Program-made: the position numbers and the translations under genes
Notes under the pieces: generated by a model
The model's input: the letters and a program-made list of their open reading frames with translations, nothing else
Told to the model about the DNA's origin: nothing
Database searches by the model: none
Source: Alistipes finegoldii
GTDB taxonomy: Bacteria > Bacillota_I > Bacilli_A > Acholeplasmatales > Anaeroplasmataceae
NCBI GenBank assembly: GCA_963621965.1
Contig: CAVFGN010000003.1
Span: forward strand, 8,107 to 72,106
Reading direction: 5' to 3'
Length of the DNA stretch: 64,000 nucleotides
Part shown: in pieces, positions 1,866 through 57,316 of the stretch
How the letters are laid out: every line of letters starts with the position of its first letter
How positions within the stretch are numbered: position 1 is the stretch's first letter

Positions 1866-1866
1866 T

Positions 1867-6598: not shown

Positions 6599-7714
6599 TT
6601 ATTTTACACCATCTACTATATTAACTTTATATACGTCACATTTAATATTTGTTTTATTGTAATATCTTTCAATTACACTTTCTTTGAATGTTTCAAACTC
6701 ATTTTTATTTATAAGTGCAATCGCACATCCTCCAAATCCAGCACCAATCATACGTGCACCGATTGCGCCCGAATCTAAGGCAGCTTCAACGATTGAATCT
6801 AGATGAAAGCCTGAAACTTCATACAGATTTTTAAGAGATTCATGTGATTCATTTAAAAGGACACCAAGATTATCAATATCATATGATTTAAGAGAATCTA
6901 TAAACTTATAGACACGTCTATTTTCTAATATAACATGTTTTACTCTTTTTAATATTACAGGATCATTAATAAGCTCATTAATTTCACGTAAATCGCATTC
7001 TTTAAGTTCACACAAATTCTTAACAGAATAGCGTTTAGAAATCATTTCTAGCCCCTTAGAACACTCTAAAACGCGTTCATTATATTTTGATTCAACTAAT
7101 TTTCTAGATTTATTTGTCTTTAATATTACAAAGGTATAATTTTTAAGATTTAAATCATAATATTTGTATTTAAAACTTGCGCAATCAAGAAGAAGTGCTG
7201 TATTCTTTTTACCAAGAGTTATAATGGCTTCATCCATTATACCACTTGATAATTTACAATAAATATTTTCAACGTCTTTAGCAATTAAAACAATAGTTTC
7301 TTTATTTATATTTAAGCTAAATATTTTATTAATCGCAAAAATTGTAACAACTAAAATAGCAGCCGAACTTGAAAGGCCTGAACCTAGAGGAATTTCTGAT
7401 TTGTAGTATAGGTCAAGCCCTTTATCTACTTTATATCCTCTTTGTTTTAATATATAAAATACACCAACTACATAAGTAGCCCATAAATAAGAAGAAGAGT
7501 ATTCTAAATTATTTAAGTTCGTGTTAATTGATGTATCAAAATTATCTGAGCTAATTATTAATTGATTATCAGATCTTAAATTTACATACAAATTAATATA
7601 CAAATCTATACAACAAGGTAATACCACTCCACCATTATAGTCGATATGTTCGCCTATCAAATTGATTCTAGCAGGAGCCTTGAAGTTATACATAAAATTA
7701 GTCAAGACGTTCAC
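6599..7714 (-). CDS. galK: Galactokinase
   Basis: GHMP kinase motifs: PARINLIGEHIDYNGG (galactokinase signature) and PLGSGLSSSAA. Confidence 0.9.
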   Translation of the reverse strand: MNVLTNFMYNFKAPARINLIGEHIDYNGGVVLPCCIDLYINLYVNLRSDNQLIISSDNFDTSINTNLNNLEYSSSYLWATYVVGVFYILKQRGYKVDKGLDLYYKSEIPLGSGLSSSAAILVVTIFAINKIFSLNINKETIVLIAKDVENIYCKLSSGIMDEAIITLGKKNTALLLDCASFKYKYYDLNLKNYTFVILKTNKSRKLVESKYNERVLECSKGLEMISKRYSVKNLCELKECDLREINELINDPVILKRVKHVILENRRVYKFIDSLKSYDIDNLGVLLNESHESLKNLYEVSGFHLDSIVEAALDSGAIGARMIGAGFGGCAIALINKNEFETFKESVIERYYNKTNIKCDVYKVNIVDGVK

Positions 7715-9137
7715 CTGCGGCTAATTTTACACATTTATAAGCACCATCGTAATAGCCTTCATCTTTATTTTTGTTAATTATTTTAATCATATTAACAAGA
7801 AGTGACTTGTCATTAATAATTGAATCTAATGCTTCGTTCATACCTTTTTTAGTAGCTTCTTCTTCAAAACCATCACCATATTCACGAGAATGAATTTGAC
7901 CATAAACTTCGTGTCCACCTATATGTTTCATGAATAATTTAGGAATAGGATAGTAAGCAAGTTCACTTGGCTTTGTAATTAATAAATCCATATTAGGCAT
8001 TAATAAGTTAGTTACATAAACTGCTTTAAAAATATCTTCATCACAAACTGCATATATTCCTAATTTATCATTATTTGTAAGTTCATTATTTAAGTTTTTA
8101 ACGCTTGAATAATCATCAAATATAGTATTAATTTCTAATTCTTTAATATCTTTAATTAATTTTTTATAAACTGTATCATGGTCACCAAAGTTAATGAAAA
8201 GTGAGACTTGTTTATTTTTAACATAAGGTATCAAATGGATAATCATTTCTTTAAATTGTTTATACCCAGCGCCTGCTCCACCTACACTCATTAATATTCT
8301 AAGAGGTCGATTATTATAAATTCTTCGTAAACGACGCTCGTTATCTTGCTTAAGATTAACTAAAAGTTCATGGTCTACAAAACATCCTACATTATAAATA
8401 GTGTCATCAGGCATATGATTTAAAGATTTTTTATCAAATCCTTTTAGGGTTTTATAACCATTGTATGCATAGTTTGTTTGTACAGCATGAATAGCCCCCT
8501 CAGATAAGTGAAGAGCCATAGGCCAGTTATCAGGTATCGCGTTACAAACGTGTGTCATACCACCATGTATTGCGCCCTGAGATGGCCATACATGTGTTGC
8601 AATATAAGGAATATCTTTATCTATATTTTTAAATAAAGGGGCTAATAATTCGCTATTTTTTTGATCAATTGCGTTATAGCTAATCTTTTTAAAACCTTCA
8701 GAGTTTAAAGGTTCCCATACAAAATGGTTAAACAGATGAGATTTTTGTGAAATTCTACTTGCAATAGAATACATATCGTTTTGAGCTTTAATCATTTTAC
8801 TGCCAGTAGAATCAAAAGATGCTAAATCAAGCCAATAAGGAGTGTAACCTAAAGCTCGTGCACAAGAAGCCATTGCAATAGAAATTCGGTAGTGTCCAAA
8901 ACCCATACGGATATTACCAACAATTAATGGATTGTTTTCAAATTTTTGGTTCTCACGTCCAATCTTTATCATCATAGGTTTTATATCGCCAAGTGAAGAT
9001 ATTTCTTCGAAGTTGAAACAGTAATTGCAATTTGAGTCGTCCCCAAACTTTTTAATCCATTTATTTTTTGATTTATTAGCTTTTTTAATGGTTTTATTAC
9101 TCATTTTATTATTATAAATTTTAGTTGTTTTATCCAT
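7698..9137 (-). CDS. GT-B-fold glycosyltransferase-like protein (MGDG synthase/UgtP-like); specific function unknown
   Basis: GFGHYRIS near the N-terminus, LMSVGGAGAG, and LLITKPSELAYYPIPKLFM resemble GT28/MGDG-synthase donor-binding segments. Overlaps galK by 17 nt and is coupled to the upstream gene by a TAATG overlap. Confidence 0.35.
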   Translation of the reverse strand: MDKTTKIYNNKMSNKTIKKANKSKNKWIKKFGDDSNCNYCFNFEEISSLGDIKPMMIKIGRENQKFENNPLIVGNIRMGFGHYRISIAMASCARALGYTPYWLDLASFDSTGSKMIKAQNDMYSIASRISQKSHLFNHFVWEPLNSEGFKKISYNAIDQKNSELLAPLFKNIDKDIPYIATHVWPSQGAIHGGMTHVCNAIPDNWPMALHLSEGAIHAVQTNYAYNGYKTLKGFDKKSLNHMPDDTIYNVGCFVDHELLVNLKQDNERRLRRIYNNRPLRILMSVGGAGAGYKQFKEMIIHLIPYVKNKQVSLFINFGDHDTVYKKLIKDIKELEINTIFDDYSSVKNLNNELTNNDKLGIYAVCDEDIFKAVYVTNLLMPNMDLLITKPSELAYYPIPKLFMKHIGGHEVYGQIHSREYGDGFEEEATKKGMNEALDSIINDKSLLVNMIKIINKNKDEGYYDGAYKCVKLAAGERLD

Positions 9138-10741
9138 TATAATAAAATTCCTTTCTTAGAATCATATTTAATTACAAATTCTCTGTCTTGTAGTGTGTAA
9201 TATATTGTATAAATATTATTCTTAACTTCATAATATTTGTTAGTCGCATTATAGAATATATCTAACGCATTGTCCAAAACTTTATTTTTTTCCTTATCAT
9301 AAGTTTTAATATTGTCGCTAGTCATTAAAATCGAACCAAAGATGGCATTAATTGTAATTAAAGCAATTTTTTGACTAAATGATAGTTTATTATTTTCATC
9401 GCGTAAAATAAACGAATCAGGGTCATTTAAAAATAGTACGTCATCAAATATTGATCTAGTGATAGTATCAACTATTGTATGCTTTGTAGAGTTTCTTTCT
9501 CTATGAAAATGTCTCATGTACCAAAAATCATCAAAGATTAAAGAAGTATCACACCCTACACGAGAATAGTCAAATATATTAGCTGATGAGAATAAGTTGT
9601 TACCACATCCTAAAATCAATTTATTTTTTAATATCATACGTAAGAACTCGTAACTTTCTCTTTGCGTTTCAGCTTTAGTTTTACCTTTGTTATTTACAAT
9701 ACTGCCTGCATAAATAAAGTCTAATTTAAAATAATCAAATCCTAAATCAATATAATATTTTAAACATGAGCTTATGTATTCTTTAACTTCGCTTTTTTCT
9801 AAGTCAAGCGCAAAGAAACTAGACCAGTTTCCACCGCCTTTAACAAGAGAACCATCAGGATATTTTTTTATCCAATCATTGTGATTTTTAAATAATTTTG
9901 AATTGGTTTCACAAACAAAAGGTGCTAACCAAATTCCTGCTAACATACCTTTTTGATGAATTTTTTCAACGATTGAACTTAATCCATGCTTAAATTTGTT
10001 AGAATCAATATCTAGCCAGTCACCGACAAACGTTTCATATCCGTCGTCAATTTGAAATAAATCAAATCTATTATCAAGCGCTTCTAGATCATTTAAAATG
10101 ATATCTTCATTTATGTTTTGATAATAATTATACCAAGAAGAATATCCTAGTATCTTTTTATTTTTAGAAGATTTAAAATCTTCCTTAAAGGAAGATAGAC
10201 CTAATTCGTAAGTATCAAAGTACTTGAAGTTAAATAGAATAAAACTTTCGTCTTTTTTTAAAACTTTACCTTTTATATCAGAGATTAAATTTAGGGTTTT
10301 TGTTTTTTTATTAATTTCAAAAATTAGATAAGCATTTTTATAATTAAGATTGTAGAAGAAGTCATTCCTACTTCCTTTAATATAGAAAAGATCATAACTA
10401 TGAAGTTTATTTTTTTTATAATTATAAAATTTTGCATCCCCGTAATCACGCATACCGAATTTTTCAGTGATGAATTTAGGCATTTTTAAGATATTTTTTT
10501 CAACAAAATTAATATTAGTTAAATGCGTATCTGTCCAAGATTGATATCCATTTAAAAAATATAAATCTTTTGAATTTATAATATTTTCCTTTAATATAGT
10601 TGCACTAATAAGTGTAATATTAGTTTTTGAGATAATTGAATATTTAAAGTTATTAGTAGCGCAATCAATAATAATCTCTAAATCTTCGTTTGAAGATTCT
10701 GTTTTATATATTTTGTTTTCTTTTATGTATTCAAGTAACAT
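9137..10741 (-). CDS. Alpha-galactosidase (GH36-like, short form)
   Basis: FQIDDGYETFVGDWL, GIWLAPF, YFKLDFIY, LNDPDSF. I prefer the ATG at 10741 (MLLEYIKEN) to the ORF-track start at 10768. It sits 1 nt after the symporter stop and has AAAAGGA upstream. Confidence 0.7.
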   Translation of the reverse strand: MLLEYIKENKIYKTESSNEDLEIIIDCATNNFKYSIISKTNITLISATILKENIINSKDLYFLNGYQSWTDTHLTNINFVEKNILKMPKFITEKFGMRDYGDAKFYNYKKNKLHSYDLFYIKGSRNDFFYNLNYKNAYLIFEINKKTKTLNLISDIKGKVLKKDESFILFNFKYFDTYELGLSSFKEDFKSSKNKKILGYSSWYNYYQNINEDIILNDLEALDNRFDLFQIDDGYETFVGDWLDIDSNKFKHGLSSIVEKIHQKGMLAGIWLAPFVCETNSKLFKNHNDWIKKYPDGSLVKGGGNWSSFFALDLEKSEVKEYISSCLKYYIDLGFDYFKLDFIYAGSIVNNKGKTKAETQRESYEFLRMILKNKLILGCGNNLFSSANIFDYSRVGCDTSLIFDDFWYMRHFHRERNSTKHTIVDTITRSIFDDVLFLNDPDSFILRDENNKLSFSQKIALITINAIFGSILMTSDNIKTYDKEKNKVLDNALDIFYNATNKYYEVKNNIYTIYYTLQDREFVIKYDSKKGILL

Positions 10742-10742
10742 A

Positions 10743-12197
10743 TTAATCCTTTTCTTTTTGAACAGCACTTAAATAGTCGTTATCGCTATCTTTACTTATA
10801 ATAGTCATGATTTTCTTTTCTTTATAGAACATAAGAATGATTGCGCCTAGGCAACAAAAAGCGCATGCAACGAAAGCTACAATTGTTAAACCTAGTTTAC
10901 CAGCTGTTAGGTCATTAGCTTTTAAATCTACATTTGAAGCTCCGATAATAGCTAAACTTGTAAACATTAACATTGCCACAGATTGACCAAGTTTCATTGC
11001 GAAGGTTCTTGCTGCAAAGAACATTCCTTGTCTATTTTCACTAGTTTGAATAGAATCGGCTTCAGCTACATCAGCTACAATTGATTGAGGAATAATTCCA
11101 AGTAAAGCCATAGGTAAAGAGGCTACAACAACAATTACAATACCATAAACAAGTCCTGGTATTTGAGGAATTAAATAAATACAAGCACAAATAAGGTAAC
11201 ATAATGCAAGTCCAAAGAATCCGGCAATGGTAAGTTTTTTCTTACCAAACTTTTTAACTAACTTATCTACAAAAGGATAGAAACAAGCAGAAAGAACTGT
11301 CATTGCGCCCATGAAAACCATAACAAGAGATTCAGATAAACCCATTGAAACTTTTACAAAGAAAGGTAGTCCTGTTTGAAATAGAGTTAATCCAATCCAA
11401 TACATTATATCAGAACAAACAAATACTCTGAAGTCTTTATTCTTGAAAGTTGATTTAAGCGATTTAAATGCATTTGTATTGCTTGGCTTAGCTTCAACGA
11501 AATCTGTTTCTTTAATTAAGAAAGTAGGAAGTAACATACATATAAGTGCAATAATAGCTAAAACAACGAAGCAAATTCGATATGAATTATAGTATCCAAC
11601 TTGATCTTTAAAAAATCCAGCAAATACAAATGGTGTATAAGCTAGTAATGTACCAGCAAAATAAGTAAGTGAAATATATGTAGAAATATTCATTCTATCT
11701 TGTTGAGTTTTACCAAATTCAGAAATTAAAGCATTATAAGGTGTACAGTAGATAGTCATGAAGGTATAGAATAACACAAGAGCTATACTTACCCAAATGA
11801 TGTTAAGTGCATAACCATTGTCAGTTGAAAAGTTAGCACAAAAAACAAGTACTGTAGTTAATGCAAAAGGGATGGCTGCAAATCTCATAAATGGCATACG
11901 ACGTCCTTTTTTATTTTTTGAGTTGTCACTTAAATTAGCTACAAGTGGATCACTTACGGCATCCCAAATTCTACACAAAGCTGTAATTAAACCTAAGACA
12001 GTTAGAATACCACCGATGATTAGGCCTGATGGTAATAAATTTTTTACGCCCTCATTTTGAGTTTCTTCAGTAATTAAATAAAACGAAACTAGCCAAGCAT
12101 TAATGATGCCACCCAAAATAGACCAGCCAAGTTGACCAATTGCAAAGATCCACATTTGCTTTTTTGTTAGACGTTTTGAAACTATATTCTCCTCCAT
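10743..12197 (-). CDS. Glycoside-pentoside-hexuronide:cation symporter (MelB-like)
   Basis: 12-TM-like profile with a GPH-type N-terminus (KQMWIFAIGQLGWSILGG, DAVSDPLVANLSDN). Start moved to the ATG at 12197 (MEENIV), which has AGGAGAG 6 nt upstream. Confidence 0.75.
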   Translation of the reverse strand: MEENIVSKRLTKKQMWIFAIGQLGWSILGGIINAWLVSFYLITEETQNEGVKNLLPSGLIIGGILTVLGLITALCRIWDAVSDPLVANLSDNSKNKKGRRMPFMRFAAIPFALTTVLVFCANFSTDNGYALNIIWVSIALVLFYTFMTIYCTPYNALISEFGKTQQDRMNISTYISLTYFAGTLLAYTPFVFAGFFKDQVGYYNSYRICFVVLAIIALICMLLPTFLIKETDFVEAKPSNTNAFKSLKSTFKNKDFRVFVCSDIMYWIGLTLFQTGLPFFVKVSMGLSESLVMVFMGAMTVLSACFYPFVDKLVKKFGKKKLTIAGFFGLALCYLICACIYLIPQIPGLVYGIVIVVVASLPMALLGIIPQSIVADVAEADSIQTSENRQGMFFAARTFAMKLGQSVAMLMFTSLAIIGASNVDLKANDLTAGKLGLTIVAFVACAFCCLGAIILMFYKEKKIMTIISKDSDNDYLSAVQKEKD

Positions 12198-12366
12198 ATT
12201 ATACTCTCCTTTAAATAAAATATAGTTAGTTAGCTTATATAAGTTTAAACGCAAAAAAATAAAATTTGTATCCTTATATAATATATAAGTAAACTTGAAA
12301 ATATTAAATTTTAATCTTACTCCTTAAAGTATTTTAAACAACTGAGAAATGCTAACTATTTTAATA

Positions 12367-12395
12367 ATTTTATCATATGGTGTAAGCGCTGTCAA
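12367..12395 (-). promoter_or_regulatory. Promoter of the galactoside operon, TTGACA-17 nt-TAAAAT, overlapped by a cre-type operator TGTAAGCGCTGTCA (12381-12394)
   Basis: On the minus strand: TTGACAgcgcttacaccatatgaTAAAAT. The 14-mer fits TGWNANCGNTNWCA. This leaves a 5' UTR of about 160 nt. Confidence 0.65.
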
Positions 12396-12539
12396 TTTAA
12401 TATAAAAAAGCAGTCGCAATTAAATGATTTTTCAATTATATATTTTTTAATTCAATTTTAAAAAAAGTTAATAAAAAGATCAGATATATCAAACAACTTT
12501 TTTGAAATAAACTTTACAACGAAAAAATTCGTTTTGTAT

Positions 12540-12556
12540 CTAGCTTTTAAAACTAG
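12540..12556. repeat. P1: CTAG-bounded palindrome CTAGCTTTTAAAACTAG (16/17 to family consensus)
   Basis: Flanked symmetrically by AAAAAATTC..(12522) and ..GAATTTTTTTT (to 12578), giving about 55 bp of dyad symmetry. TTGTAT and AATAAT abut the core exactly 17 nt apart. Confidence 0.8.
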
Positions 12557-12614
12557 AATAATCTTTTGAATTTTTTTTATATTAAATTATAAATATTTAT
12601 TAATTATTATAACG

Positions 12615-12667
12615 AATCGAGATGATGTTTTATACGTTAAGTAGAATCTCGATTTGTCTATTTTTTT
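12615..12667 (+). repeat. H1: hairpin with 9-bp stem AATCGAGAT/ATCTCGATT, 22-nt loop, then a T7 run
   Basis: Arms at 12615-12623 and 12646-12654 are perfect complements. T-run at 12661-12667. Terminator-like, but the loop is unusually large. Confidence 0.7.
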
Positions 12668-12726
12668 ACTACGTTTTGGCTTATTAATAATAAATAAGGA
12701 GAATCCTTAAAAAATTCGTTTTGTAT

Positions 12727-12743
12727 CTAGTTTTTAAAACTAC
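12727..12743. repeat. P2: CTAGTTTTTAAAACTAC (16/17)
   Basis: The 40 nt AAAAAATTCGTTTTGTATCTAG.TTTTAAAACTA..AATAA is nearly identical to P1. Confidence 0.8.
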
Positions 12744-12877
12744 GAATAAAATGTAAAATTATTTTTAAATAAGTAGACATAATTTGCTTTTCTATGATTT
12801 AATTTTTTATTAAAGAATTTTATTTATTCTGATTTTTACCGAGTCTAATTAACCCCAAAAATATTTTCGATTTATTA

Positions 12878-12894
12878 CTAGTTTTTAAAACTAA
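12878..12894. repeat. P3: CTAGTTTTTAAAACTAA (16/17)
   Basis: The left flank TTTTCGATTTATTA resembles the P1/P2 flank. Confidence 0.75.
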
Positions 12895-13051
12895 ATAATA
12901 CAATATAAAAGTTTTATAATATAATTATAGAAAATAAGTGATTTTTGAACGTACGACAACGTGTAATTTTTAATTTACTTTTACTTTACAAATTAAAAAA
13001 ATTAAAATAGTTTTATAAATTATAATATTTACATTTGATGTTTAAGTTTTA

Positions 13052-13080
13052 TTGAAAGAAATCCATTCATTTGTTATAAT
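13052..13080 (+). promoter_or_regulatory. Strong sigma-70 promoter TTGAAA-17 nt-TATAAT with extended -10 (TGtTATAAT)
   Basis: Spacer counted as 17 nt. Lies 25 nt upstream of the ATG at 13105. Confidence 0.75.
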
Positions 13081-13104
13081 TTAGATAATTATGTGAGGTG
13101 CAAA

Positions 13105-14193
13105 ATGTTCAATCTTGAGAATGTTAGAAACCTTGGCGTAAAAGAAGAAGAGGTAATGAAATTGTTGAATCTCTACCAGTACAAAGGAAAAGATATTCAT
13201 TACGCAAAGCTTCTTGAAAAAGACCAAGATAAGATAATCAAAAAGAATACAAATATTGATATTTTAGAATTAACTAAATTCTTTAAACTAGATATTACAG
13301 ATGCAAGAAAAAAGTATATTATTAAAAACGGCGGAAGTGGTAAAAATAAAGCCGAACAATTCATGATTAATACTAGAAATGTTATGTACAAATTTGTATC
13401 AAATTACATGAATTTTGAACTAGAAAGCCATGAATTTGTTCGTTTTGTAGAAGAATTATTTAGTAAAATTGAAACAGTTAAGCCTGCTGTTTACTACACG
13501 CAGGATTCATCAAATGTTCTATATACTGAAAAAAAGAAGGTATTTAGACGTAACGATTTAGATGCAATGCTTGATATTTTTACTACTAAAAAGAATTCGA
13601 ACGAATATGAAATCACAAATCTTATTGCCAATTTTTATATCGATTTTGTGAATCAGAATATATTCACAGCCCATAATGACATTATTGGTTTATTTATTTT
13701 GTATATGTTATTAATTGTTTCTGGGTTTACAGTTTTTAGATATGTTAGTTTCTTTGAGCTATTTAATACACATTATGGCGAATTTGAGGATGCCATGAAA
13801 ATGGCTAATGCTAACTATGAAGATGGATATTCTAACCCAATAAAGCTTAATAAATTCTTAATTAATATTGTTTTAGAAGCTTATAATAAGTTAGAGGATT
13901 TCTTACATGAATATTCATACGAGACAAGAATTTCTAAAGAAAATGAGATCATAGGCTTGATTTATCATTTACCTCAGGAATTCACAAAAGAAGATATTCG
14001 AAAGGCTAATCCGTTTGTTAGTGATTCAACCATTAATCGAGCATTAGCTAGTCTATCATCTGAAAATAAAATTAGATCTTTAGGAACTGGGCGCTCTGCT
14101 AAGTGGATAAGATTAATAGAAAAACCTACATTTGAAACTACACAAACTACTAGTATATTTGACTTTACAGGAGAAGAAGATGAGAGTGCTTAA
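13105..14193 (+). CDS. Orphan protein with Fic-fold-like architecture, a degenerate active-site motif, and a C-terminal winged-helix DNA-binding domain
   Basis: The only long ORF in 4.9 kb. Start set at the ATG at 13105, with GAGGTG 4 nt upstream (the ORF track starts at a GTG at 13093). Where Fic proteins carry HPFxxGNGR, this one has FTAHNDIIGLF. The C-terminus DSTINRALASLSSENKIRSLGTGRSAKWIRL looks like a wHTH. It has its own promoter and terminator. Confidence 0.55.
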   Translation: MFNLENVRNLGVKEEEVMKLLNLYQYKGKDIHYAKLLEKDQDKIIKKNTNIDILELTKFFKLDITDARKKYIIKNGGSGKNKAEQFMINTRNVMYKFVSNYMNFELESHEFVRFVEELFSKIETVKPAVYYTQDSSNVLYTEKKKVFRRNDLDAMLDIFTTKKNSNEYEITNLIANFYIDFVNQNIFTAHNDIIGLFILYMLLIVSGFTVFRYVSFFELFNTHYGEFEDAMKMANANYEDGYSNPIKLNKFLINIVLEAYNKLEDFLHEYSYETRISKENEIIGLIYHLPQEFTKEDIRKANPFVSDSTINRALASLSSENKIRSLGTGRSAKWIRLIEKPTFETTQTTSIFDFTGEEDESA

Positions 14194-14213
14194 TAGCACT
14201 CTATTATTTTTTT
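14183..14213 (+). terminator. Intrinsic terminator of the Fic-like gene
   Basis: Perfect 8-bp stem AGAGTGCT/AGCACTCT with the stop codon in the TAAT loop, followed by a T-rich run. Confidence 0.8.
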
Positions 14214-14223
14214 CAAAATATAA

Positions 14224-14240
14224 CTAGTTTTAAAAACTAC
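14224..14240. repeat. P4: CTAGTTTTAAAAACTAC (15/17)
   Basis: Flanks TTTTTTTCAAAATATAA / TATACGTATGAATAAA fit the family flanks. Confidence 0.7.
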
Positions 14241-14297
14241 TATACGTATGAATAAATAACGACTTTTCATTTTAAAAACATGATTATATAGTAATTT

Positions 14298-14350
14298 TAA
14301 TCTCAAAATACTTAAATTTAAATTAAAAAAAGTTTACATTTTTGAGATTA
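14298..14350. repeat. Long inverted repeat: 11-bp stem TAATCTCAAAA/TTTTGAGATTA with a 31-nt loop
   Basis: Arms at 14298-14308 and 14340-14350 are complementary. The arm sequence (AATCTC) resembles the H-family arms. Confidence 0.6.
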
Positions 14351-14414
14351 GATATAAATTAAAATTTATTAATTATAACTATAAGCTGATCAATTTAAAC
14401 TCATTAGTTTAAGC

Positions 14415-14455
14415 ATTCGAGATCTGATGTATGGTGAATAATACAGTCTCCAATT
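14415..14455 (+). repeat. H2: degenerate H-family copy (ATTCGAGATCTGATG ... AGTCTCCAATT)
   Basis: The 5' box matches H1/H3/H4 (TCGAGAT..GATG). The 3' arm is decayed and the stem no longer pairs fully. Confidence 0.45.
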
Positions 14456-14471
14456 AATTTTCAAAAATTAT

Positions 14472-14488
14472 CTAGTTTTAGCAACTAG
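14472..14488. repeat. P5: CTAGTTTTAGCAACTAG (14/17)
   Basis: Flanks AATTTTCAAAAATTAT / ATTAAAAATGAAATTTTTT. The right flank is shared almost exactly with P8. Confidence 0.7.
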
Positions 14489-14495
14489 ATTAAAA

Positions 14496-14582
14496 ATGAA
14501 ATTTTTTATATTGTTGTTTGACAGAGAAGAAGAGGCAATTCATCAAATCAGATTTTACTCTCCATTTGGTGATTTAAAGTGA
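14496..14582 (+). CDS. Possible 28-codon mini-ORF (MKFFILLFDREEEAIHQIRFYSPFGDLK) starting in the conserved P flank
   Basis: ATGAAATTTTTT is conserved after several P copies, but no Shine-Dalgarno is present and the other copies stop after 1-17 codons. It may be a relic, not a gene. Confidence 0.12.
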   Translation: MKFFILLFDREEEAIHQIRFYSPFGDLK

Positions 14583-14586
14583 TATA

Positions 14587-14630
14587 AATCGAGAAGATGA
14601 AATGTTCAGCATTTATTATTTGAATTGTTA
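14587..14630 (+). repeat. H3: degenerate H-family copy (AATCGAGAAGATG...)
   Basis: The 5' box is conserved. No convincing 3' arm. Confidence 0.35.
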
Positions 14631-14786
14631 ATAAATCTTTGAAACCGAAAATAAACACGCTCATAGAATGTTTTGTGAATATGTTTATTCTCTTATATTG
14701 GTCAAATCCACCCTGTTTTAGATACTCATATACAATTATAGAGGCTGATTAAGACTCTAATTTATTATAGAAAAGAACTTCGAACA

Positions 14787-14814
14787 ACTACCGATAATAT
14801 ATATTATGTTAACC
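14787..14814 (+). other. dif: dif, the chromosome dimer resolution site (XerC/XerD target): ACTACCGATAA-TATATA-TTATGTTAACC
   Basis: 11-6-11 layout. By hand alignment, 23/28 identical to the B. subtilis dif as I recall it (ACTTCCTAGAATATATATTATGTAAACT), including the whole central TATATA and TTATGT. The right arm is 9/11 to the E. coli XerD arm TTATGTTAAAT. It lies at the point where gene orientation converges. xerD and ftsK are in the window. Confidence 0.75.
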
Positions 14815-14824
14815 AATAAATAAA

Positions 14825-14845
14825 GCCTTAGTTAAGGCGTTTTTT
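14825..14845 (+). terminator. Terminator-like hairpin 10 nt after dif
   Basis: GCCTT-AGTT-AAGGC followed by GTTTTTT. Short stem. No annotated gene upstream. Confidence 0.4.
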
Positions 14846-14918
14846 AAATCGTTGTGGATTTGTATGTTTCTACATGTTCCGTTAATTTATTCAAAACATA
14901 TATATTGCTTATTTCGCT

Positions 14919-14971
14919 AATCGAGATCGAAGAGAGTCCAGAACTGTAAAACTCGATTTCTCAAATTTTTT
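14919..14971 (+). repeat. H4: hairpin with 7-bp stem AATCGAG/CTCGATT, 26-nt loop, then a T6 run
   Basis: Arms at 14919-14925 and 14952-14958. The stem sequence matches H1 but the loop is unrelated. The downstream segment (T-run, TTTTGGC, ATAWAAA, CGAAT) aligns by eye with the segment after H1. Confidence 0.65.
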
Positions 14972-15020
14972 GGCATTTTCATATAAAAAGCGCCATTCTC
15001 ATCACGAATACAATTTTTAT

Positions 15021-15037
15021 TTAGTTTTTATAACTAG
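15021..15037. repeat. P6: TTAGTTTTTATAACTAG (15/17)
   Basis: Right flank ATGATATATGAAAAT fits the family. Confidence 0.7.
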
Positions 15038-15452
15038 ATGATATATGAAAATCCCATTAATTTAGCTGGAATATTTAGAAAAAATAATACACCAATTTGA
15101 TATCAATTTCACCTTTTCTGATTATTATTATAAAACTAAAACTTACAAAAATAATGTAAGTAACTTTTAAAATTATTTTTTTTGTGAAAACCAGTTTGTT
15201 TTACATTTCTATGTTTTATAAGCATCGAATAATATAAATACTTATAATAATAGCTTTCGAATTATTAAAAAAGTCTTCTTATACTTCTGAGAAAGGTTAT
15301 TGAAATAGAAAGAAAATTATGAGTATTTTGTGTAAACTTTTTTAGCAAAAAAACTATAACTGTTTTTGACGATTTTTGATACGAATTATAAAGCTCTTAT
15401 GATTATCAAATTAGATGATCAAAGTTTCTTTCAAAAACATCAAATTAAATAT

Positions 15453-15469
15453 CAAGTTTTTAAAACATG
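15453..15469. repeat. P7a: CAAGTTTTTAAAACATG (14/17)
   Basis: Degenerate copy, separated from P7b by a 28-nt hairpin. Confidence 0.5.
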
Positions 15470-15473
15470 CTAA

Positions 15474-15501
15474 AACCATCTTAATGTAATATTAAGTGGT
15501 T
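15474..15501. repeat. Hairpin AACCA(T)CTTAAT-GTAAT-ATTAAGTGGTT between P7a and P7b
   Basis: 11 bp plus one bulged T, read directly from the sequence. Confidence 0.55.
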
Positions 15502-15512
15502 ATTAAAACTAC
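15496..15512. repeat. P7b: GTGGTTATTAAAACTAC (13/17)
   Basis: The right flank ATACAATTTGAATTTTTTT is the reverse complement of the P1 left flank (AAAAAATTCGTTTTGTAT) with few changes. Confidence 0.55.
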
Positions 15513-16699
15513 ATACAATTTGAATTTTTTTCAAGTTCTTCTTCCTGTACTCAGTTGGTTTATATGTGCATAAACTCTTAAAATTAGTGTCGCTTTCTTC
15601 GAATTGCTTATATGATAAAACGTCTTCTTTTGTATTCTAGATTTACAAAATATTAAAATAAATAAGTGAAATTATATTTATTCGATACGAAAAAAATCCT
15701 CAAATTGAATGGCCAAATTTGAATTCTAAAATAACAATTTTTGAAGAAAATTTTTAAGATAATTTATAATTTCTGGTTTTCGTATTGATAACTTTTATAA
15801 TTGATTTTATACCTTTTACATTCAAGTAGTTTAGATTTGTATTTCTATTTTTGGTTAAATTTGTCCAATGCTAAAATTAGAAATTCTATTAAGATCAACT
15901 CATGATGATGTACAAGAATTTTATCAAATCCAGTCCTAATTTTTTTAATTTTCTTTGATTTTAAGTGATTAATTATATCTCATTTGACAAACTTTCGTAA
16001 CTAATTTAGATTCGAAGTCATGTTAAAAAACAAACATAAATTGATACAAAAAATCGAATTTGGTTAATTATCACAGTAAGACTTAAATTCATATGATTAA
16101 ATATTTGCGAGGATGTTAAAGGAAGCTGTTGGTTATCGTATGATATGCAATTTGAACTCATCTGAGAATTTAATTGAAAATTTATTTTCGTAGCACGTAA
16201 ATATTCACCAGCCGCATTTCGAAACATTACCTAACTTACACATAGTTTAAACTAAAAATTATTAATTTGATCTTCATGTTATTCAATTATCAAATACGGT
16301 TTATTTATTGAATGGAATCAAAAAAAGAATTGTGAACAATTTGCATAATTAATAACGTTTTTGGAGCTAGTTTGAAGCATTTCATTTCGTAAATAAAATC
16401 AAATTTTCTAAAGCATTTAACAGCGGCACACAAAATCTTTCTACGAAAATTAAAAATATAATATTCCAACAAAAGTGAATGTTAAACATTCATTTAAAAT
16501 TTATGTTTAAAAAATCATATTTTTTTGCAATACCAGATTTGAATAAATTTAATCCTTCTTAAGTTGGCCTCTTATACTGTTGTAATTCACTTCGTAATTG
16601 TTAAAAATCGTCAAAAAAGTATTATATTTAATTTTTAAATTTTCTTAAATTGTTTGTAAACTTTTATTATTTTTTATTAAGAGAAAATTTTGATTATAT

Positions 16700-16716
16700 A
16701 TAGTTCTTAAAACTAG
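16700..16716. repeat. P8: ATAGTTCTTAAAACTAG (15/17)
   Basis: The right flank ATATTAAATGAAATTTTTTA is nearly identical to that of P5. Confidence 0.7.
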
Positions 16717-17106
16717 ATATTAAATGAAATTTTTTAATTGCTTTCAGTAAGCTCAATAAAAAATTATTAATTTTCGATAAAATCATGATTCGCAATTTTT
16801 TATAATATAAAAGTAATTTGTTCTCTTCTTCTTTTGTTTTTTAAAAATTCATGAATATTGAAAGACATCCTGATTACGGTGTATATGTAATATGAGCTTA
16901 AAAATTTTATATTTTCATAATAGTTCAAATAAATACCAAAACTAGTATTCAAGACTATATAGAAAACTAAAAATTTTTTATACACTATTTTTGAGTTAAA
17001 ATATTGCTAAAAAATACCCATTTAATTTCACTACTATCATCAATTATTTTTCAGATAAATCATATGTTTATTATAATTGCAACTAGTATATTCAATGTTG
17101 CAGCAA

Positions 17107-17123
17107 CTAGTTTTTGATACTAG
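17107..17123. repeat. P9: CTAGTTTTTGATACTAG (15/17)
   Basis: Preceded by a partial copy GCAACTAGTATA (17079-17090). The right flank TATACATTTGAAAAAAATTT merges into the deoB terminator. Confidence 0.65.
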
Positions 17124-17133
17124 TATACATTTG

Positions 17134-17163
17134 AAAAAAATTTGACCCGTATCGCTACGAGTC
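17134..17163 (-). terminator. Intrinsic terminator after deoB
   Basis: Minus-strand RNA GACUCGUA-GCGA-UACGGGUC, then AAAUUUUUUU. Confidence 0.75.
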
Positions 17164-17173
17164 AAGCTTATAA

Positions 17174-18370
17174 TTATTCAATATCTTTCAAGAACGAATG
17201 TCCCCATTCACTTTCTTTAACACCAAAATTTTCAGCGACTGTATTGCCAAAATCTGAGAAAGATTGACGGATACCAAGATCAGTAGAACCTATGTTTTTG
17301 TGCCATACAATTAGAGGTACATATTCTCTTGTATGGTCAGTTCCAAACCATGTAGGATCATTACCATGATCAGCTGTAATCATAACTAAATCATCATCAT
17401 TTAATTGATTAATTAATTGTCCTAGTTGTGTGTCAAATTCTTCCATGGCTTGTCCATAACCTTGAGGGTTTCTTCTATGTCCATATAATGCATCAAAGTC
17501 AACTAAATTTAAATAACAAAGTCCTGTAAAATCTCTATTTTTTGCAATATCAATCATATGGTTCATACCATCTGCATTTGATACTTGTCTAATAGATTCT
17601 GTGATACCACAACCATTATATATATCTGAAATCTTACCTAAACCTATAACTGTATAATTAGCTTCTTTAAGCTTGTCTAGAATTGTAGGCGCAAACGGTG
17701 AAACCGCATAATCGTGTCTATTTGGAGTTCTTGTAAAGTTAGTTTTGTCAGTACCTACAAATGGTCTTGCGATAATTCTACCAACTTTCCATTCTGGCTT
17801 CATACATAATTCACGCGCAATATGACAACATCTATATAGTTCTTCAAGACCAAATGTTTCTTCATGTGCCGCGATTTGTAATACCGAATCACTTGAAGTA
17901 TAAACAATCATAGAGTTATCTCTCATTTGTTCTTCACCTAAGTCTACTAGGATTTGAGTACCTGAGGCGGCACAGTTACCAATTACTTTATGTCCTGTTT
18001 GCTTTTCAAGTTCATCAATTAATTCCTTAGGGAAACCTGTATCAGTGAATGTTTTAAATGGTTCTTTTACATTTAAGCCCATAATTTCAAGATGACCTGT
18101 TAACGTATCTTTACCACGAGAAATTTCTTGCATCTTACCATGAGCGCCTTGCTTACATGTTTTGCTTAATCCTTCAATATCAGTTATCATTCCATAACCC
18201 ATAGATTCAAGAACAGGTAATTTTAAGCCATTGCAAGACGCTGCTATATGAGCTATTGTATTAGCTCCTTCGTCTGTGTGGCCTGCATTAAAGAATTCAT
18301 TTGAATCCTTACAAGTACCACAGCCTACGCTATCAATTACGATAGCAAAAATTCTTTTAAATTTTTTCAT
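17174..18370 (-). CDS. deoB: Phosphopentomutase
   Basis: Alkaline-phosphatase-superfamily DeoB features: IVIDSVGCG near the N-terminus, ITADHGNDPT, and GHRRNPQGY. Confidence 0.9.
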   Translation of the reverse strand: MKKFKRIFAIVIDSVGCGTCKDSNEFFNAGHTDEGANTIAHIAASCNGLKLPVLESMGYGMITDIEGLSKTCKQGAHGKMQEISRGKDTLTGHLEIMGLNVKEPFKTFTDTGFPKELIDELEKQTGHKVIGNCAASGTQILVDLGEEQMRDNSMIVYTSSDSVLQIAAHEETFGLEELYRCCHIARELCMKPEWKVGRIIARPFVGTDKTNFTRTPNRHDYAVSPFAPTILDKLKEANYTVIGLGKISDIYNGCGITESIRQVSNADGMNHMIDIAKNRDFTGLCYLNLVDFDALYGHRRNPQGYGQAMEEFDTQLGQLINQLNDDDLVMITADHGNDPTWFGTDHTREYVPLIVWHKNIGSTDLGIRQSFSDFGNTVAENFGVKESEWGHSFLKDIE

Positions 18371-19303
18371 CTATTTTTCCTCCTTATTTGCTAGTGGATG
18401 AACACTTTCTACTAAATCTTTTAGTTTTAATCGATTTGTATGTGTATAAATTTGAGTTGTCGAAATATCTTCATGGCCTAACATTTCTTGCACAAAGCGT
18501 AAATCAACACCATTATCAAGTAAATGTGTCGCAAATGAATGTCTTAAAGTATGAGGTGAAATTTCTTTATCAATATTGTTATCACTCGCAAGTTTCTTTA
18601 CAAATTTAAAAATACTTTGTCTTGATAAAGGTTTACCTAAATAAGATAAGAAAACGAAATTGCTAAAACTATTATTTGTAAAATTAGGTCGAGACTTAGT
18701 TATATATGTTCTAAGCGCATCTACCCCAGATTCTCCAAGTGGAACAATTCGCTCTTTATTTCCTTTACCTATAATAGATATATATTTTTCATTTAGATGT
18801 AAATCCCCTACTTTAAGATTAGCAGCTTCACTTACACGAAGTCCTGAACCATATAAAACTTCAATTAAAGCTTTATTGCGAACTCCTGTATCAATTGATG
18901 TATCAATTGAATCAATCATTTTATTAATTTCTTCAACTGATAAAAATGTTGGTATCTTTTTCTCTTTTTTAACGCTATCAACCATTTTTGCAGGATCAAT
19001 ATCAGTCGAGTCTTCTTTAAGTAAATATTTATGAAACTCTTTAATTGCAATAAGTTTTCTAGCTTGGCTGGTTTTACTTATTTTATTATTTTTAAGAGTT
19101 TGTAAATATTTAATAATATGAACCTCTTCTATTTCATTAACCGATTCAATTTTTTGATATTTTGACAAATAAGAAGCGTATTGTTCAATATCAGATATAT
19201 ACGCTTTAATAGTATTTTCGCTTAAATTCTTCTCATTTTCTAAGAAAAATTTGAAGTCTTGCATTTCATAAAAAACTACTTCTTTTTCTTTCTTTTTTTT
19301 CAT
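18371..19303 (-). CDS. xerD: Tyrosine recombinase XerD-like
   Basis: GSGLRVSEA, HTLRHSFATHLLDNGVDLRFVQEMLGHEDISTTQIYTH (the R-H-R-Y catalytic set). Adjacent to deoB, as for ripX/xerD in Bacillus. 3.6 kb from the dif candidate. Confidence 0.8.
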   Translation of the reverse strand: MKKKKEKEVVFYEMQDFKFFLENEKNLSENTIKAYISDIEQYASYLSKYQKIESVNEIEEVHIIKYLQTLKNNKISKTSQARKLIAIKEFHKYLLKEDSTDIDPAKMVDSVKKEKKIPTFLSVEEINKMIDSIDTSIDTGVRNKALIEVLYGSGLRVSEAANLKVGDLHLNEKYISIIGKGNKERIVPLGESGVDALRTYITKSRPNFTNNSFSNFVFLSYLGKPLSRQSIFKFVKKLASDNNIDKEISPHTLRHSFATHLLDNGVDLRFVQEMLGHEDISTTQIYTHTNRLKLKDLVESVHPLANKEEK

Positions 19304-20409
19304 ACAAACTCCATAAATACTAAATCGCCTAACATAATTCCTTTATGAGTTAATTTAATATAGTCCTCATTTGCTTCTAAAAGGCCTGTATCAAAGAGTT
19401 TTGACAAGTCGTATACATTTTCTATTTCTTTGCCAAAACGTTCTCTAAACGCATGTTTTGAAACTCCTTTAGTCATTCTTAAACCTAACATCATAAATTC
19501 ATTTTGGTTAGTTAGTTCATCTATTATTTCTTCTTCTTTAATTCCAATATAATAATCACTAAAATTAGAACTATTAGTGTAACGTATATTATCTAAATAT
19601 CCGCTTGCATTAAGCCCACAACCAATATATTCTAAATCAAGCCAATATATCATATTATGAATTGATTCAAAGCCTTTTCTTGAGTAATTAGATATTTCAT
19701 ATTGATTATACCCATGCTTACTTAAATCAGACATAATATACTCATACATGTCAGCTGACACATCTTCGTCAATCAATTCTAATTTATTATTATTGTATAA
19801 GTAAGACATTATAGTTTTATCTTCTAAAATAAGTGAATAATAAGAAATATGCGGTATATCTAATTTATAAAATTCATTTAGATTTTCCTTTATTAGTTCA
19901 AAAGAATCGTAGGGATGAGCAAATATTAAATCAACATTAATATTTTCTATACCAACATTCTTTAAAATTCTAACCGCTTCAAATATTGTCTCTCTATTGT
20001 GAGTTCTTCCAAGTTTTAATAAAACATCATTGTTAAAAGACTCAGCGCCAATACTAACACGGTTTATATTATGTTTCTTAAAAAGCTTTGCTTGATCTTC
20101 TGTGAGCAAATCAGGATTAATTTCTATAGAATATTCTTTAATGTTTAAATTTATACTAAATATATCAATAGTATCTAGTAAATGTGATAATAAATCATAA
20201 GGTAAATAGTTAGGAGTTCCTCCTCCTATATAGATAGTTTCAATATCTTTGTATTTATCTCTATAAGATAAAATTTCTTTTTCAAGAAATGAAACATATT
20301 TACTAATTATTGATAAATTTTTGCTTACAGTTTTACGAAAATCGCAATACGTGCATATTTTTTTACAAAATGGAATATGTATATATAATCCTCTCACATA
20401 AATCACCAA
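19300..20409 (-). CDS. hemW: Radical SAM HemW/HemN-like protein (heme chaperone or oxygen-independent coproporphyrinogen oxidase-like)
   Basis: YIHIPFCKKICTYCDF (CxxxCxxC). C-terminal HemN_C-like region. Non-ATG start (TTG/GTG). Confidence 0.8.
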   Translation of the reverse strand: MVIYVRGLYIHIPFCKKICTYCDFRKTVSKNLSIISKYVSFLEKEILSYRDKYKDIETIYIGGGTPNYLPYDLLSHLLDTIDIFSINLNIKEYSIEINPDLLTEDQAKLFKKHNINRVSIGAESFNNDVLLKLGRTHNRETIFEAVRILKNVGIENINVDLIFAHPYDSFELIKENLNEFYKLDIPHISYYSLILEDKTIMSYLYNNNKLELIDEDVSADMYEYIMSDLSKHGYNQYEISNYSRKGFESIHNMIYWLDLEYIGCGLNASGYLDNIRYTNSSNFSDYYIGIKEEEIIDELTNQNEFMMLGLRMTKGVSKHAFRERFGKEIENVYDLSKLFDTGLLEANEDYIKLTHKGIMLGDLVFMEFV

Positions 20410-20460
20410 CTAGATTATACCACAATTTGAATATAATGAAAAAAGAGTAGTCAAAATAAA

Positions 20461-21396
20461 CTACCCTTCGATAATGTTTGATAAATCGATTTTTTCATAA
20501 TTTAAGAATAACTTATCTAAATCGATTCTTTCTCTTTCCGCATCAGTCATAACATGGACTAAGAAATCAAATCCATCAATTAAAACCCATCCTGAGTTTT
20601 CGCCTTCACTAGCTTTAACTTGATATCCAACTTTTGCTAATTCTTCTTTAATATATTCGATACTAACGTTAGCTTGACGTTCAGAGTCAACACTTGCGAT
20701 TAAGACAAATTTAAAGAATGGTGAACTTAAATTAGTATCGTAACATACGATATCATGAGGATTTACTCTCTTTAATCCCTCATAAATTGTTTTAATTTTT
20801 TCCATAATTAATTTCCTTTCATATTCATATAATACATCTTTTTGCATAGGATGTACGTTTTTATTTTGTTTATTTAAAAAGTTTATAGTAAATAAAGTAG
20901 ATAAATATATAGCTTCGTTAAGCCTTCCACTAAGTAATATATTTCTTACAGTAATACAATCTTTATAAGTTCTATTTTCTTCAGTATAGTCACTTATTAG
21001 AACAATCTCTTCAAGCTTAGTCATATTTGTATGTCCAAAGACATGATTTTTAATTGCACTTTTCATCTCAAGATCATCTATATTAAATACTTTTTTCAAA
21101 GCTTCGCTTGAGGCATAAGCATGGTATAAAACAGTGCATTTTTCGCATTCTTCTAAATCGCTTGGGTCAATTAATGTTTTCATCTCTTCTTCAGATTCAT
21201 ACTTATAAAAATCATGTACAAGTCCACATATAATAGCACGTGATTTATCTACATTATAAATAGAAGCTAAATATTCACACATTTTAGCCACACCTAGTAT
21301 ATGAGTAAATCTAGATAATTTATCAGGATATTTAGTTTTATACTTAGCTTCAACTATATTTCTAACTTCGTTAATTTTTTGATCCGAAAATTGCAT
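20461..21396 (-). CDS. In-frame fusion of the YqeK HD-domain phosphohydrolase and the ribosomal silencing factor RsfS
   Basis: The N-terminal ~195 aa has RFTHILGVAKM..GLVHDFYKY..NHVFGH (YqeK-type HD). The C-terminal ~115 aa (MEKIKTIYEGL..FKFVLIASVDSERQANV..GWVLIDGFDFLVHVM) is RsfS/iojap-like. No stop codon separates them. AAAGGAAA lies 8 nt before the internal ATG. Confidence 0.65.
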   Translation of the reverse strand: MQFSDQKINEVRNIVEAKYKTKYPDKLSRFTHILGVAKMCEYLASIYNVDKSRAIICGLVHDFYKYESEEEMKTLIDPSDLEECEKCTVLYHAYASSEALKKVFNIDDLEMKSAIKNHVFGHTNMTKLEEIVLISDYTEENRTYKDCITVRNILLSGRLNEAIYLSTLFTINFLNKQNKNVHPMQKDVLYEYERKLIMEKIKTIYEGLKRVNPHDIVCYDTNLSSPFFKFVLIASVDSERQANVSIEYIKEELAKVGYQVKASEGENSGWVLIDGFDFLVHVMTDAERERIDLDKLFLNYEKIDLSNIIEG

Positions 21397-57206: not shown

Positions 57207-57316
57207 AATGAGATCCACAATTTGTGGATGGCAAATGCACCGCTAGTTAAACTATTCGTCTTAAAGATATCCAACCTTTAAGCACTTAACGCGCATATGT
57301 TTTTTATATTCACTAT
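57207..57316 (-). promoter_or_regulatory. THF (folate) riboswitch
   Basis: Minus-strand RNA: ..CAUAUGCGCGUUAAGUGCUUAAAGGUUGGAUAUCUUUAAGACGAAUAGUUUAACUAGCGGUGCAUUUGCCAUCCAC.. It parallels the THF-I aptamer strings GCGUUAAGUG-hairpin-AUGGGAU-hairpin-ACGAA...GCGGUG...UUGCAUCC. The downstream hairpin AUCCACAAAUUGUGGAU abuts the RBS. Confidence 0.75.

Follow-up and report, generated by a model that had tools for sequence, protein, structure and literature searches.

A 64-kb window (64,000 nucleotides of contig CAVFGN010000003.1, to which all coordinates refer) contains a replication terminus in which ten copies of a polar site are arranged on the two sides of dif, the dimer-resolution site. Among the sites lies a gene, here called X, that encodes a predicted Fic-fold protein with a C-terminal winged helix. 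Our results showed that the array is real and conserved. Literature searches on fork traps, on Fic proteins in connection with topoisomerase IV (Topo IV) or dif, and on Anaeroplasma and Acholeplasma termini gave no description of it; we therefore regard it as previously undescribed, and its function is what we infer here. We tentatively propose that the sites are candidate binding sites for X which, through their opposed polarity, quite possibly form a compact Ter-like fork trap around dif. With somewhat more reserve, we suggest that this might be a third, independently evolved bacterial fork trap, in which a catalytically dead Fic-fold/winged-helix protein would act on 4-10 polar, head-to-head sites of 38 bp near dif in the wall-less, small-genome Anaeroplasmataceae.

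Searching the window for the 17-mer core CTAGTTTTTAAAACTAG with at most three mismatches gave 18 strand-matches at 10 positions. Dinucleotide shuffles gave 1.3 +/- 1.2, and 18 was reached in 0 of 100. Nine of the ten positions fell within 12540-17123, and the tenth, at 57453, was a weak match with three mismatches inside an open reading frame (ORF) call on the minus strand (57389-57691). We also used a 40-bp polar weight matrix (PWM) trained on 130 sites from other genomes, with the window and its closest relative excluded and the training sites oriented solely by the side of dif on which they lay. Ten sites in the window scored between 21.7 and 33.5 bits, against 13.0 bits for the next best match in the 64 kb and 10-11.5 bits in shuffled windows. 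The repeat array is confirmed. The original prediction had listed ten copies and had stated that none occurs elsewhere in the window, which is correct. Nine of its coordinates (12540, 12727, 12878, 14224, 14472, 15021, 15496, 16700, and 17107) were recovered by the PWM. The copy placed at 15453 was not; it has three core mismatches and no arm. A degenerate site with its core at 16942-16958, which aligns with an orthologue in a relative (L001:13556), had been overlooked.

The sites are bipartite and polar. Each consists of an A-tract, TTTCA, an N8 spacer, and the palindrome CTAGTTTTWAAAACTAG, with the arm on one side only. In a logo of 143 sites, again oriented solely by side of dif, an A-rich tract occupied positions -21 to -14 and TTTCA positions -13 to -9 (T 86-94%, C 84%, A 71%); these were followed by six variable positions, AT, the palindrome, AT, and then no signal. 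The conserved C at -10 reached 84% on the dif-distal side, while the G at the mirror position reached 16%, that is, background. Because the logo is one-sided, the sites are not the dyads of 50-55 bp with flanks on both sides that had been described; the conserved A-tract and TTTCA stand on the dif-distal side alone, and only two copies in the window (12727 and 14472) are two-armed, with the second arm weaker.

Five sites lie on the plus strand to the left of dif (14787-14814). The outermost, S1 (12519-12558, core 12540-12556 with one mismatch), carries its arm AAAAAATTCG on the left, dif-distal side and scored 28.8 bits on the plus strand versus 19.2 on the minus strand. S2 (12706-12745, core 12727-12743, one mismatch) is nearly two-armed, with 26.8 bits on the plus and 26.5 on the minus strand. 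S3 (12857-12896, core 12878-12894), which precedes the X start codon by 227 bp, had the highest score of the window, 33.5 bits versus 14.2 on the other strand. S4 (14203-14242, core 14224-14240; 30.1 bits) begins its core 31 bp past the X stop codon, and its orthologues in the relatives L001, L002, and L004 stand at +31 to +45. S5 (14451-14509, core 14472-14488; 31.8 bits on the plus and 28.9 on the minus strand) is the innermost left site, has its weaker second arm on the right, and is placed at -323 relative to the dif centre (range in four genomes, -323 to -328).

The other five lie on the minus strand to the right of dif. S6 (15019-15058, core 15021-15037; 26.0 bits versus 16.0 on the plus strand) is the innermost of them, at +226 relative to the dif centre (range in four genomes, +226 to +228). 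S7 (15494-15533, core 15496-15512; 24.8 bits) matches the core at 13 of 17 positions and has a good arm, TGAAT; its orthologues in L001, L002, and L004 are found at +602 to +744. S8 (16698-16737, core 16700-16716) scored 30.8 bits versus 20.3 on the plus strand. S9 (16940-16979, core 16942-16958) is the degenerate site mentioned above, with 21.7 bits versus 7.5. In S10 (17105-17144, core 17107-17123; 27.3 bits) the arm doubles as the T-tail of the deoB terminator.

The polarity of the sites switches exactly at dif: the best strand was plus for S1-S5 and minus for S6-S10, so that the symmetry around dif noted in the original prediction is sharper than stated there. The same left-plus, right-minus polarity was found in L001, L002, and L004 (X identity 83, 50, and 44%). 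Over 42 loci, the arm of left sites was on the left in 50 cases, on the right in 8, and ambiguous in 7; for right sites the figures were 3, 69, and 6. Arm side thus tracked dif side in 50 of the 58 decidable left sites and 69 of the 72 decidable right sites (Fisher p = 1e-23, counted over related genomes that are not independent), and the arm stood on the origin-proximal, dif-distal side in the window and in most decidable sites of the 42 loci. Some of the exceptions were inner members of site doublets (L010:13464/13510, L013:14542/14584). Such doublets, 42-47 bp apart on the right side, occur in several genomes, with arms outward, the members facing each other, and the inner one of "wrong" polarity. 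Similar pairs are present at L004:13478/13524 and L002:13698/13744 (about 46 bp, not scored as exceptions) and at L029:12613/12657.

A strict polarity with an inversion at dif characterizes elements that meet a directional machine: Ter for the replisome, KOPS for FtsK, and Chi for RecBCD. To our knowledge, Ter is the only one of the three that is long, few in number, bound by a protein, and clustered at the terminus with the gene of its binder among the sites. Among the analogies raised in the original prediction, which included Ter with RTP or Tus and matS with MatP, the flip at dif suits a Ter-like logic better than a matS-like one. Pairing of left with right sites as in a "zipper" was considered and rejected; the distances are roughly symmetric in the clade of the window and not in most relatives, as in L029, where sites at -3.4 and -3.3 kb are opposed by sites at +0.25 and +1.2 kb from dif.

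Relatives of X numbered 173 in a sequence search, on contigs with the same neighbourhood, and a genome scan with one genome per species gave 302 X loci, 80 of which were fetched. Their labels included Anaeroplasmataceae, Acholeplasmataceae, Mollicutes, and Izemoplasmatales. About 45 Anaeroplasmataceae-like loci had the same dif 0.3-3.3 kb after X, the motif on both sides of it, and the same polar array and gene order. The organisms that bear the array are uncultured gut relatives of Mollicutes. With at most two mismatches, 148 of 150 sites from 49 loci were located within -5 to +3 kb of dif, and two were in the roughly 390 kb beyond. Among 241 million metagenome records, the exact full-site pattern was matched four times. 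Three matches directly adjoin an X gene, two of them with the order parE-parC-udk-X, and the fourth, on a contig of 2.5 kb, does not allow a judgement.

When the gene-free stretch of 2.6-3.0 kb was aligned among four genomes, the identity peaks were the sites and dif, and the spacers were at background. Orthologous positions past the X stop codon (+31-45, about +300, +860-900, and others) were kept at 44-83% X identity. Because of these peaks amid background spacers and these kept positions, the sites are, as far as sequence comparison goes, under selection as discrete elements. Discrete conserved sites in otherwise unconstrained DNA, with a palindromic core and an arm at a fixed distance, point to protein-binding sites.

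It is scarcely credible, on the same comparisons, that the array is a non-functional or selfish repeat, similar to repetitive extragenic palindromes or miniature inverted-repeat transposable elements or left by decayed duplications in a gene-poor terminus. AT-rich, gene-free DNA does tolerate repeats, and a second hairpin family occupies the same region. However, the sites of the array keep their orthologous positions and polarity across spacers at background identity, no copies above noise occur in the other 59 kb of the window, only 2 of 150 lie in the roughly 390 kb of relatives' flanks outside -5 to +3 kb of dif, and terminal repeats, target duplications, and a transposase are absent. The idea that the copies are relics of a duplicated promoter is excluded, as orthologous sites persist at 44-50% X identity while the DNA between them has diverged. 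An origin from mobile elements was likewise rejected: among 2.9 million viral contigs there were only two isolated, chance-like single matches. The second family, at 12618-12667 and 14926-14975 and with similar copies in L004 and L029, consists of hairpins (AATCGAG...CTCGATT) with a T-run after them, as in terminators; they could mark short transcripts.

The locus is the replication terminus. In the window, G+C content is 24-33% per 2-kb window, plus-strand GC skew stays positive over about the first 6 kb and is negative beyond about 16 kb, and the genes are on the plus strand at the left end and on the minus strand over the entire right 47 kb. Since skew and gene orientation both switch, two replichores converge here. 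The dif sequence ACTACCGATAATATATATTATGTTAACC (14787-14814, plus strand), which we take to be close to the Firmicutes consensus, is kept in about 48 loci, oriented the same way with respect to X. The assignment is sound, because L001, L002, and L004 share 24 nt of it with 0-1 mismatch and in constant orientation to the neighbouring gene. Close by are xerD (18371-19303, minus strand; TIGR02225 XerD, 349.7 bits, above the cut-off), 3.5 kb from dif and convergent with X across the array, and a gene for FtsK with a gamma domain (35765-38107), about 21 kb off. On the right, the array is followed by deoB and then xerD. The left end of the window holds the Topo IV genes parE, truncated by the window start, and parC (195-4725, plus strand), with a udk-like kinase gene after parC. 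The parC product scored 861 bits with the parC_Gpos model, above the cut-off; for the truncated parE product parE_Gpos was the top B-subunit model, with 738 bits, under the cut-off of 900.

This central position of dif could mean that the array is an accessory architecture for Xer recombination, with X on both arrays wrapping the synapse as a filter that favours dimer resolution, like ArgR, PepA, or ArcA at cer and psi. The conserved distances of about -325 and +227 in four genomes agree with such a role, as do further conserved blocks within 120 bp of dif. We consider it very improbable, since known accessory sequences occupy about 200 bp on one side, whereas the array lies on both sides, 0.23-3.5 kb from dif, and two genes separate dif from the nearest left site in most genomes, at a distance of 3.3 kb. 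The usual FtsK-driven control is also at hand, since an FtsK with a gamma domain is encoded.

Several other elements were observed near dif. Eleven nucleotides to its right, a small G+C hairpin, GCCTTAGTTAAGGC, at 14825-14838 is followed by T6 and could terminate transcription on either strand; hairpin-like sequence is found at the same place in many relatives. The 9-mer TGTGGATAA, the reverse complement of TTATCCACA, resembles a DnaA box and is located at 14861-14869, 43 nt past the dif core, where the window copy reads TGTGGATTT. At this fixed offset to the right of dif it was present in 26 of 48 loci with at most one mismatch and in 44 of 48 with at most two; a control region of equal size on the left gave 0 of 48 and 11 of 48. 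One would not expect a DnaA box to be conserved at a terminus. A block TGAATATGTTTA (14681-14693) is conserved about 105-118 bp left of dif in distant relatives. A purine run AGAAGAAGAGG (14524-14534) and a palindrome CTTACA-N7-TGTAAG (15141-15160), the latter an identity peak and not a CTAG site, are conserved in the four close genomes. The motif GAAGAAG, presumably the KOPS-like motif reported for Lactococcus, changes strand at dif, with 12 copies left and 1 right on the plus strand and 3 left and 33 right on the minus strand, a skew confounded by coding-strand bias; the copies flanking dif, at 14526 (plus) and 15538 (minus), are in non-coding DNA.

Protein X (13105-14193, plus strand) has 362 amino acids, and no Pfam or NCBIfam model matched it. 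A profile of 50 relatives matched the Bordetella Fido protein 8uqu with E = 5e-29 over residues 19-335. The AlphaFold2 model (mean predicted local distance difference test score, pLDDT, 85) retrieved with Foldseek Fic structures that have C-terminal winged helices, 8uqu, 4rgl, the SoFic structures 3zcn and 3eqx, and Coxiella Fic2 8cil, with E values from 1.9e-8 to 4.3e-4; all matches at E <= 0.001 were Fic proteins. In the columns of the Fic motif HPFx[D/E]GN[G/K]R (aligned as HPFPDGNGR), the His, the first Gly, the second Gly, and the Arg were each present in 0 of 50 relatives, and Asn alone was kept, in 45 of 50. As the catalytic residues are gone in 50 of 50 relatives, X is, by its sequence and predicted structure, a Fic pseudoenzyme with a winged helix. 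Residues 295-336 form a helix-helix-strand-strand domain that aligns with the C-terminus of 8uqu, and Pfam matches to winged helix-turn-helix (wHTH) domains in relatives were weak. X is not the orphan that the original prediction took it for, given the relatives counted above.

X is the sole gene in 12198-17173, and palindromic sites flank it. Proteins of its type are known to bind DNA. Dimers of Fic-wHTH proteins attach to inverted repeats at the genes that encode them (PMC9755527; bioRxiv 10.64898/2026.07.09.737422): the CccR dimer of Yersinia protects the inverted repeat AGATAATCAT-N26-ATGATAATCT at its own promoter (PMC9755527), and SoFic of Shewanella binds the 100 bp upstream of its own gene (bioRxiv 10.64898/2026.07.09.737422). 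Like X, these proteins have N-terminal helices, a Fic fold, and a C-terminal wHTH. They are, however, active AMP-transferases and have a single operator, whereas X lacks the HPFx[D/E]GN[G/K]R motif and is associated with a polar array of many sites at dif. We believe that X is probably the binder of the sites. The suggestion of an oligomeric protein that binds the terminus, with the adjacent winged-helix protein as candidate, is thus favoured by the conserved islands, the restriction to dif, and the Fic-fold/wHTH neighbour, without its dyad and orphan parts.

Genomes with the array have SDSTINR as the predicted recognition helix, and Acholeplasmataceae that lack sites have SDATIDR, a difference confounded with phylogeny. 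In X loci of Acholeplasmataceae and Izemoplasmatales the motif was not found within +/-10 kb, even in L065 and L068, where a dif-like site lies 2-3.6 kb downstream. A test of protein-site co-variation, in which another repeated palindrome was sought around X or dif in the Acholeplasmataceae loci, gave nothing convincing. In two of these arrayless loci a palindrome TGAATA-N2-TATTCA occurs twice, about 240 bp apart and 2-3 kb downstream of X (L060:13728/13985 and L067:12977/13208).

The known relatives also suggest that the sites could be transcriptional operators. X would then be an autorepressor like CccR or SoFic, the left sites would control the udk-X unit or the X promoter, and the right sites would repress or roadblock convergent transcription into dif or control an unannotated, leftward, non-coding transcript. 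The binding of characterized Fic-wHTH proteins to their own promoters agrees with this (PMC9755527; bioRxiv 10.64898/2026.07.09.737422). So does the place of the left sites, which always immediately precede the transcription unit of udk-X or X, also in genomes where parEC or udk has moved off, and the sites adjoin terminators: the X hairpin (14183-14202, plus strand) extends its T-tail into the arm of S4, and that of deoB (17142-17165, minus strand) is the one that shares its T-tail with S10. We nevertheless consider operators unlikely, as they account only for the left sites. The right sites (five in the window, 2-6 in relatives) have no downstream gene, and ten sites far exceed what autoregulation needs.

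Besides X, no ORF of at least 90 amino acids was present in the gene-free DNA with genetic code 4 or 11. When all 143 stop-to-stop frames of at least 20 amino acids were compared with five relatives by tblastn, only X and dif were found and no conserved ORF. Rfam gave no match in 12150-17250 at the gathering score or E <= 1, and there was no tRNA; with spacer identity at background, a structured RNA in the spacers was rejected. Promoter-like matches were not enriched (45 versus 43.9 expected), and no -35 or -10 element stood at a fixed offset from the sites. The likely X promoter, TTGAAA-N17-TATAAT with an upstream TG (13052-13080, plus strand), agrees with the consensus at 11 of 12 positions, is the best of the region, overlaps no site, and is 160 bp from the nearest one. 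The specific claim that the cores fill promoter spacers as operators is not supported: TTGTAT and AATAAT flank only two window copies, and the right sites, downstream of convergent genes, have nothing to regulate. Terminator-like hairpins were enriched (5 versus 0.8), among them those of X and deoB and the small hairpin beside dif.

The order parE-parC-(udk-like)-X was found in most of the 80 loci, across Acholeplasmatales, Anaeroplasmatales, and Izemoplasmatales and down to about 42% ParC identity (42-57%), and deoB-xerD follow in nearly all array-bearing loci. This linkage raises the alternative that the array is a platform at the terminus and no fork barrier. X would coat it and mark the few kilobases around dif, where it would recruit or stimulate Topo IV through its Fic-fold domain or organize the terminus for XerCD and FtsK. 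The logic would resemble that of MatP and matS, or the action of Topo IV stimulated by XerCD at the E. coli dif, and the mirror polarity would stem from how a higher-order complex is built, or from its easy displacement by converging replisomes or FtsK. The bracketing of dif, with xerD adjoining and the FtsK gene not far off, the synteny over three orders, and the loss of catalysis with the fold kept are in line with this alternative; Fic-domain proteins are also known to target ParE and GyrB (PMC7479194).

We consider a platform without a barrier rather unlikely, although it is the main rival of the fork trap. The Fic toxins that target ParE belong to another Fic class than the SoFic-like X, and a physical contact between X and ParE is conjecture. 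In a subclade with L021, L029, L030, and others, parEC is not within 8 kb of X, and udk-X, dif, and the sites nevertheless remain together, with the left sites directly upstream of udk; in the window and in L004 other genes split udk from X, and the left sites remain with X. Sites with an architectural role, such as matS, have no polarity and are scattered over hundreds of kilobases, whereas the array is strictly polar.

We propose a barrier because two sets of sites face each other across dif. According to this proposal, X, whose gene lies within the array and, in most relatives, closes the parE-parC operon, would occupy the sites and act as a sequence-specific DNA-binding protein at the terminus only, through the sites of the array. 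The palindromic core CTAGTTTTWAAAACTAG would take a dimer, and the auxiliary arm (A-tract and TTTCA, 8 nt off) would face the origin. The opposed sets would then be direction-dependent barriers: a fork coming from the origin would reach the weak arm first and pass, and a fork that has gone past dif would reach the strong core first and stop. Forks would then fuse, Topo IV would decatenate, and Xer would recombine, all within a few kilobases of dif. Polarity of this kind is known from RTP, in which a strong and a weak half-site give it and forks that meet the weak side pass (PMC10331603). We rank a fork trap first because the arm as the weak half and the palindrome as the strong half give the orientation of a trap.

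A number of points weigh against the fork trap. Which face would block is assumed from the analogy with RTP, and as the core is a perfect palindrome, polarity would depend wholly on a 5-nt arm and an A-tract. An inner gap of 0.55 kb that holds dif is without precedent, known traps measuring at least 18 kb (PMC8707476). The model leaves the inward-facing doublets of about 46 bp on the right side of several genomes unaccounted for. The polarity statistics count related genomes, which are not phylogenetically independent, and the site scan extended only to +/-10 kb around X (49 kb in the window). Finally, X has, or had, a function that does not depend on the array, because in Acholeplasmataceae and Izemoplasmatales it follows parE-parC and there are no sites.

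Two fork traps have been described, Tus-Ter and RTP-Ter, which are mutually unrelated and whose purpose is debated (PMC10331603, PMC6549158). If the proposal is true, the array would be a third trap with another protein fold, within about 1 kb of dif and with genetic links to Topo IV and XerD. Such a trap would provide an independent test of why cells confine termination, and forks would always fuse atop the dimer-resolution site. It would also lend weight to the view that cells couple fork trapping, decatenation, and dimer resolution into a single process. Even without a barrier function, the array would be the first system of terminus-specific sites described for the Acholeplasma/Anaeroplasma branch, and it would give a Fic pseudoenzyme a cellular role.

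Other features of the window were also recorded. Just left of the array, a galactose/melibiose block on the minus strand (6599-12197) comprises galK, a DUF6937/6938 protein, a melibiase, and an MFS transporter; it is head-on to the arriving fork, and GC skew is negative there. It is probably a recent insertion or inversion, because it is present in L001 and not in L002 or L004. Downstream of xerD, a hemN-like gene (19276-20470) is broken by stop codons in the window and intact, with 365 amino acids, in L001, L002, and L004, and it may be a pseudogene or an assembly error. Two riboswitches on the minus strand, for S-adenosylmethionine (55872-55957) and tetrahydrofolate (57219-57310), have no relation to the array.

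By homology and motif, the array does not belong to Tus-Ter, RTP-Ter, or MatP-matS; neither a homologous protein nor a matching motif was found. It shares with the XDS of the Bacillus subtilis terminus, where SMC is unloaded, the clustering of multiple protein sites around dif. XDS resemble dif half-sites and are bound by XerD, whereas the motif of the array is unrelated to dif. The matS sites of E. coli also have a palindromic core, are specific to the terminus, and are tied to Topo IV and dif biology. They number about two dozen across hundreds of kilobases and are non-polar, whereas the array is polar and within about 8 kb; X is unrelated to MatP, and the matS motif GTGACRNYGTCAC had 0 matches in the window.

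The similarity to Tus-Ter of Enterobacterales, including the narrow type I traps, consists of opposed clusters (5 + 5 in E. coli and 5 + 5 here), a binder gene beside a site, and clade-wide upkeep (PMC8707476). Tus is a monomer on an asymmetric site, whereas the core of the array is palindromic, and the narrowest traps measure 18-56 kb (PMC8707476), in contrast to 0.55 kb between the innermost pair here and 3.6 kb in most relatives. No Tus homologue was found: profile and fold searches with X gave Fic proteins only. The core GTTGTAAC of the 23-bp Ter had, at up to one mismatch, one match in the window (55802) versus 3.0 expected, and none near dif.

RTP structures were absent from the sequence and fold matches of X, and the Bacillus Ter consensus had 0 matches in the window at up to three mismatches. 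RTP has 122 amino acids, whereas X is a 362-residue Fic fold, and the array is contained within about 5 kb and encloses dif. In both known traps, opposed clusters of polar sites surround the terminus and the terminator gene is embedded among them (PMC10331603). The likeness to RTP-Ter of B. subtilis extends to two opposed groups of polar sites, to bipartite sites of about 30 bp that would combine a strong and a weaker auxiliary element, if strengths may be assigned here by analogy, and to an embedded gene for a winged-helix candidate binder. The auxiliary arm on the origin side and the core on the dif side give the orientation that an RTP-type trap needs (PMC10331603).

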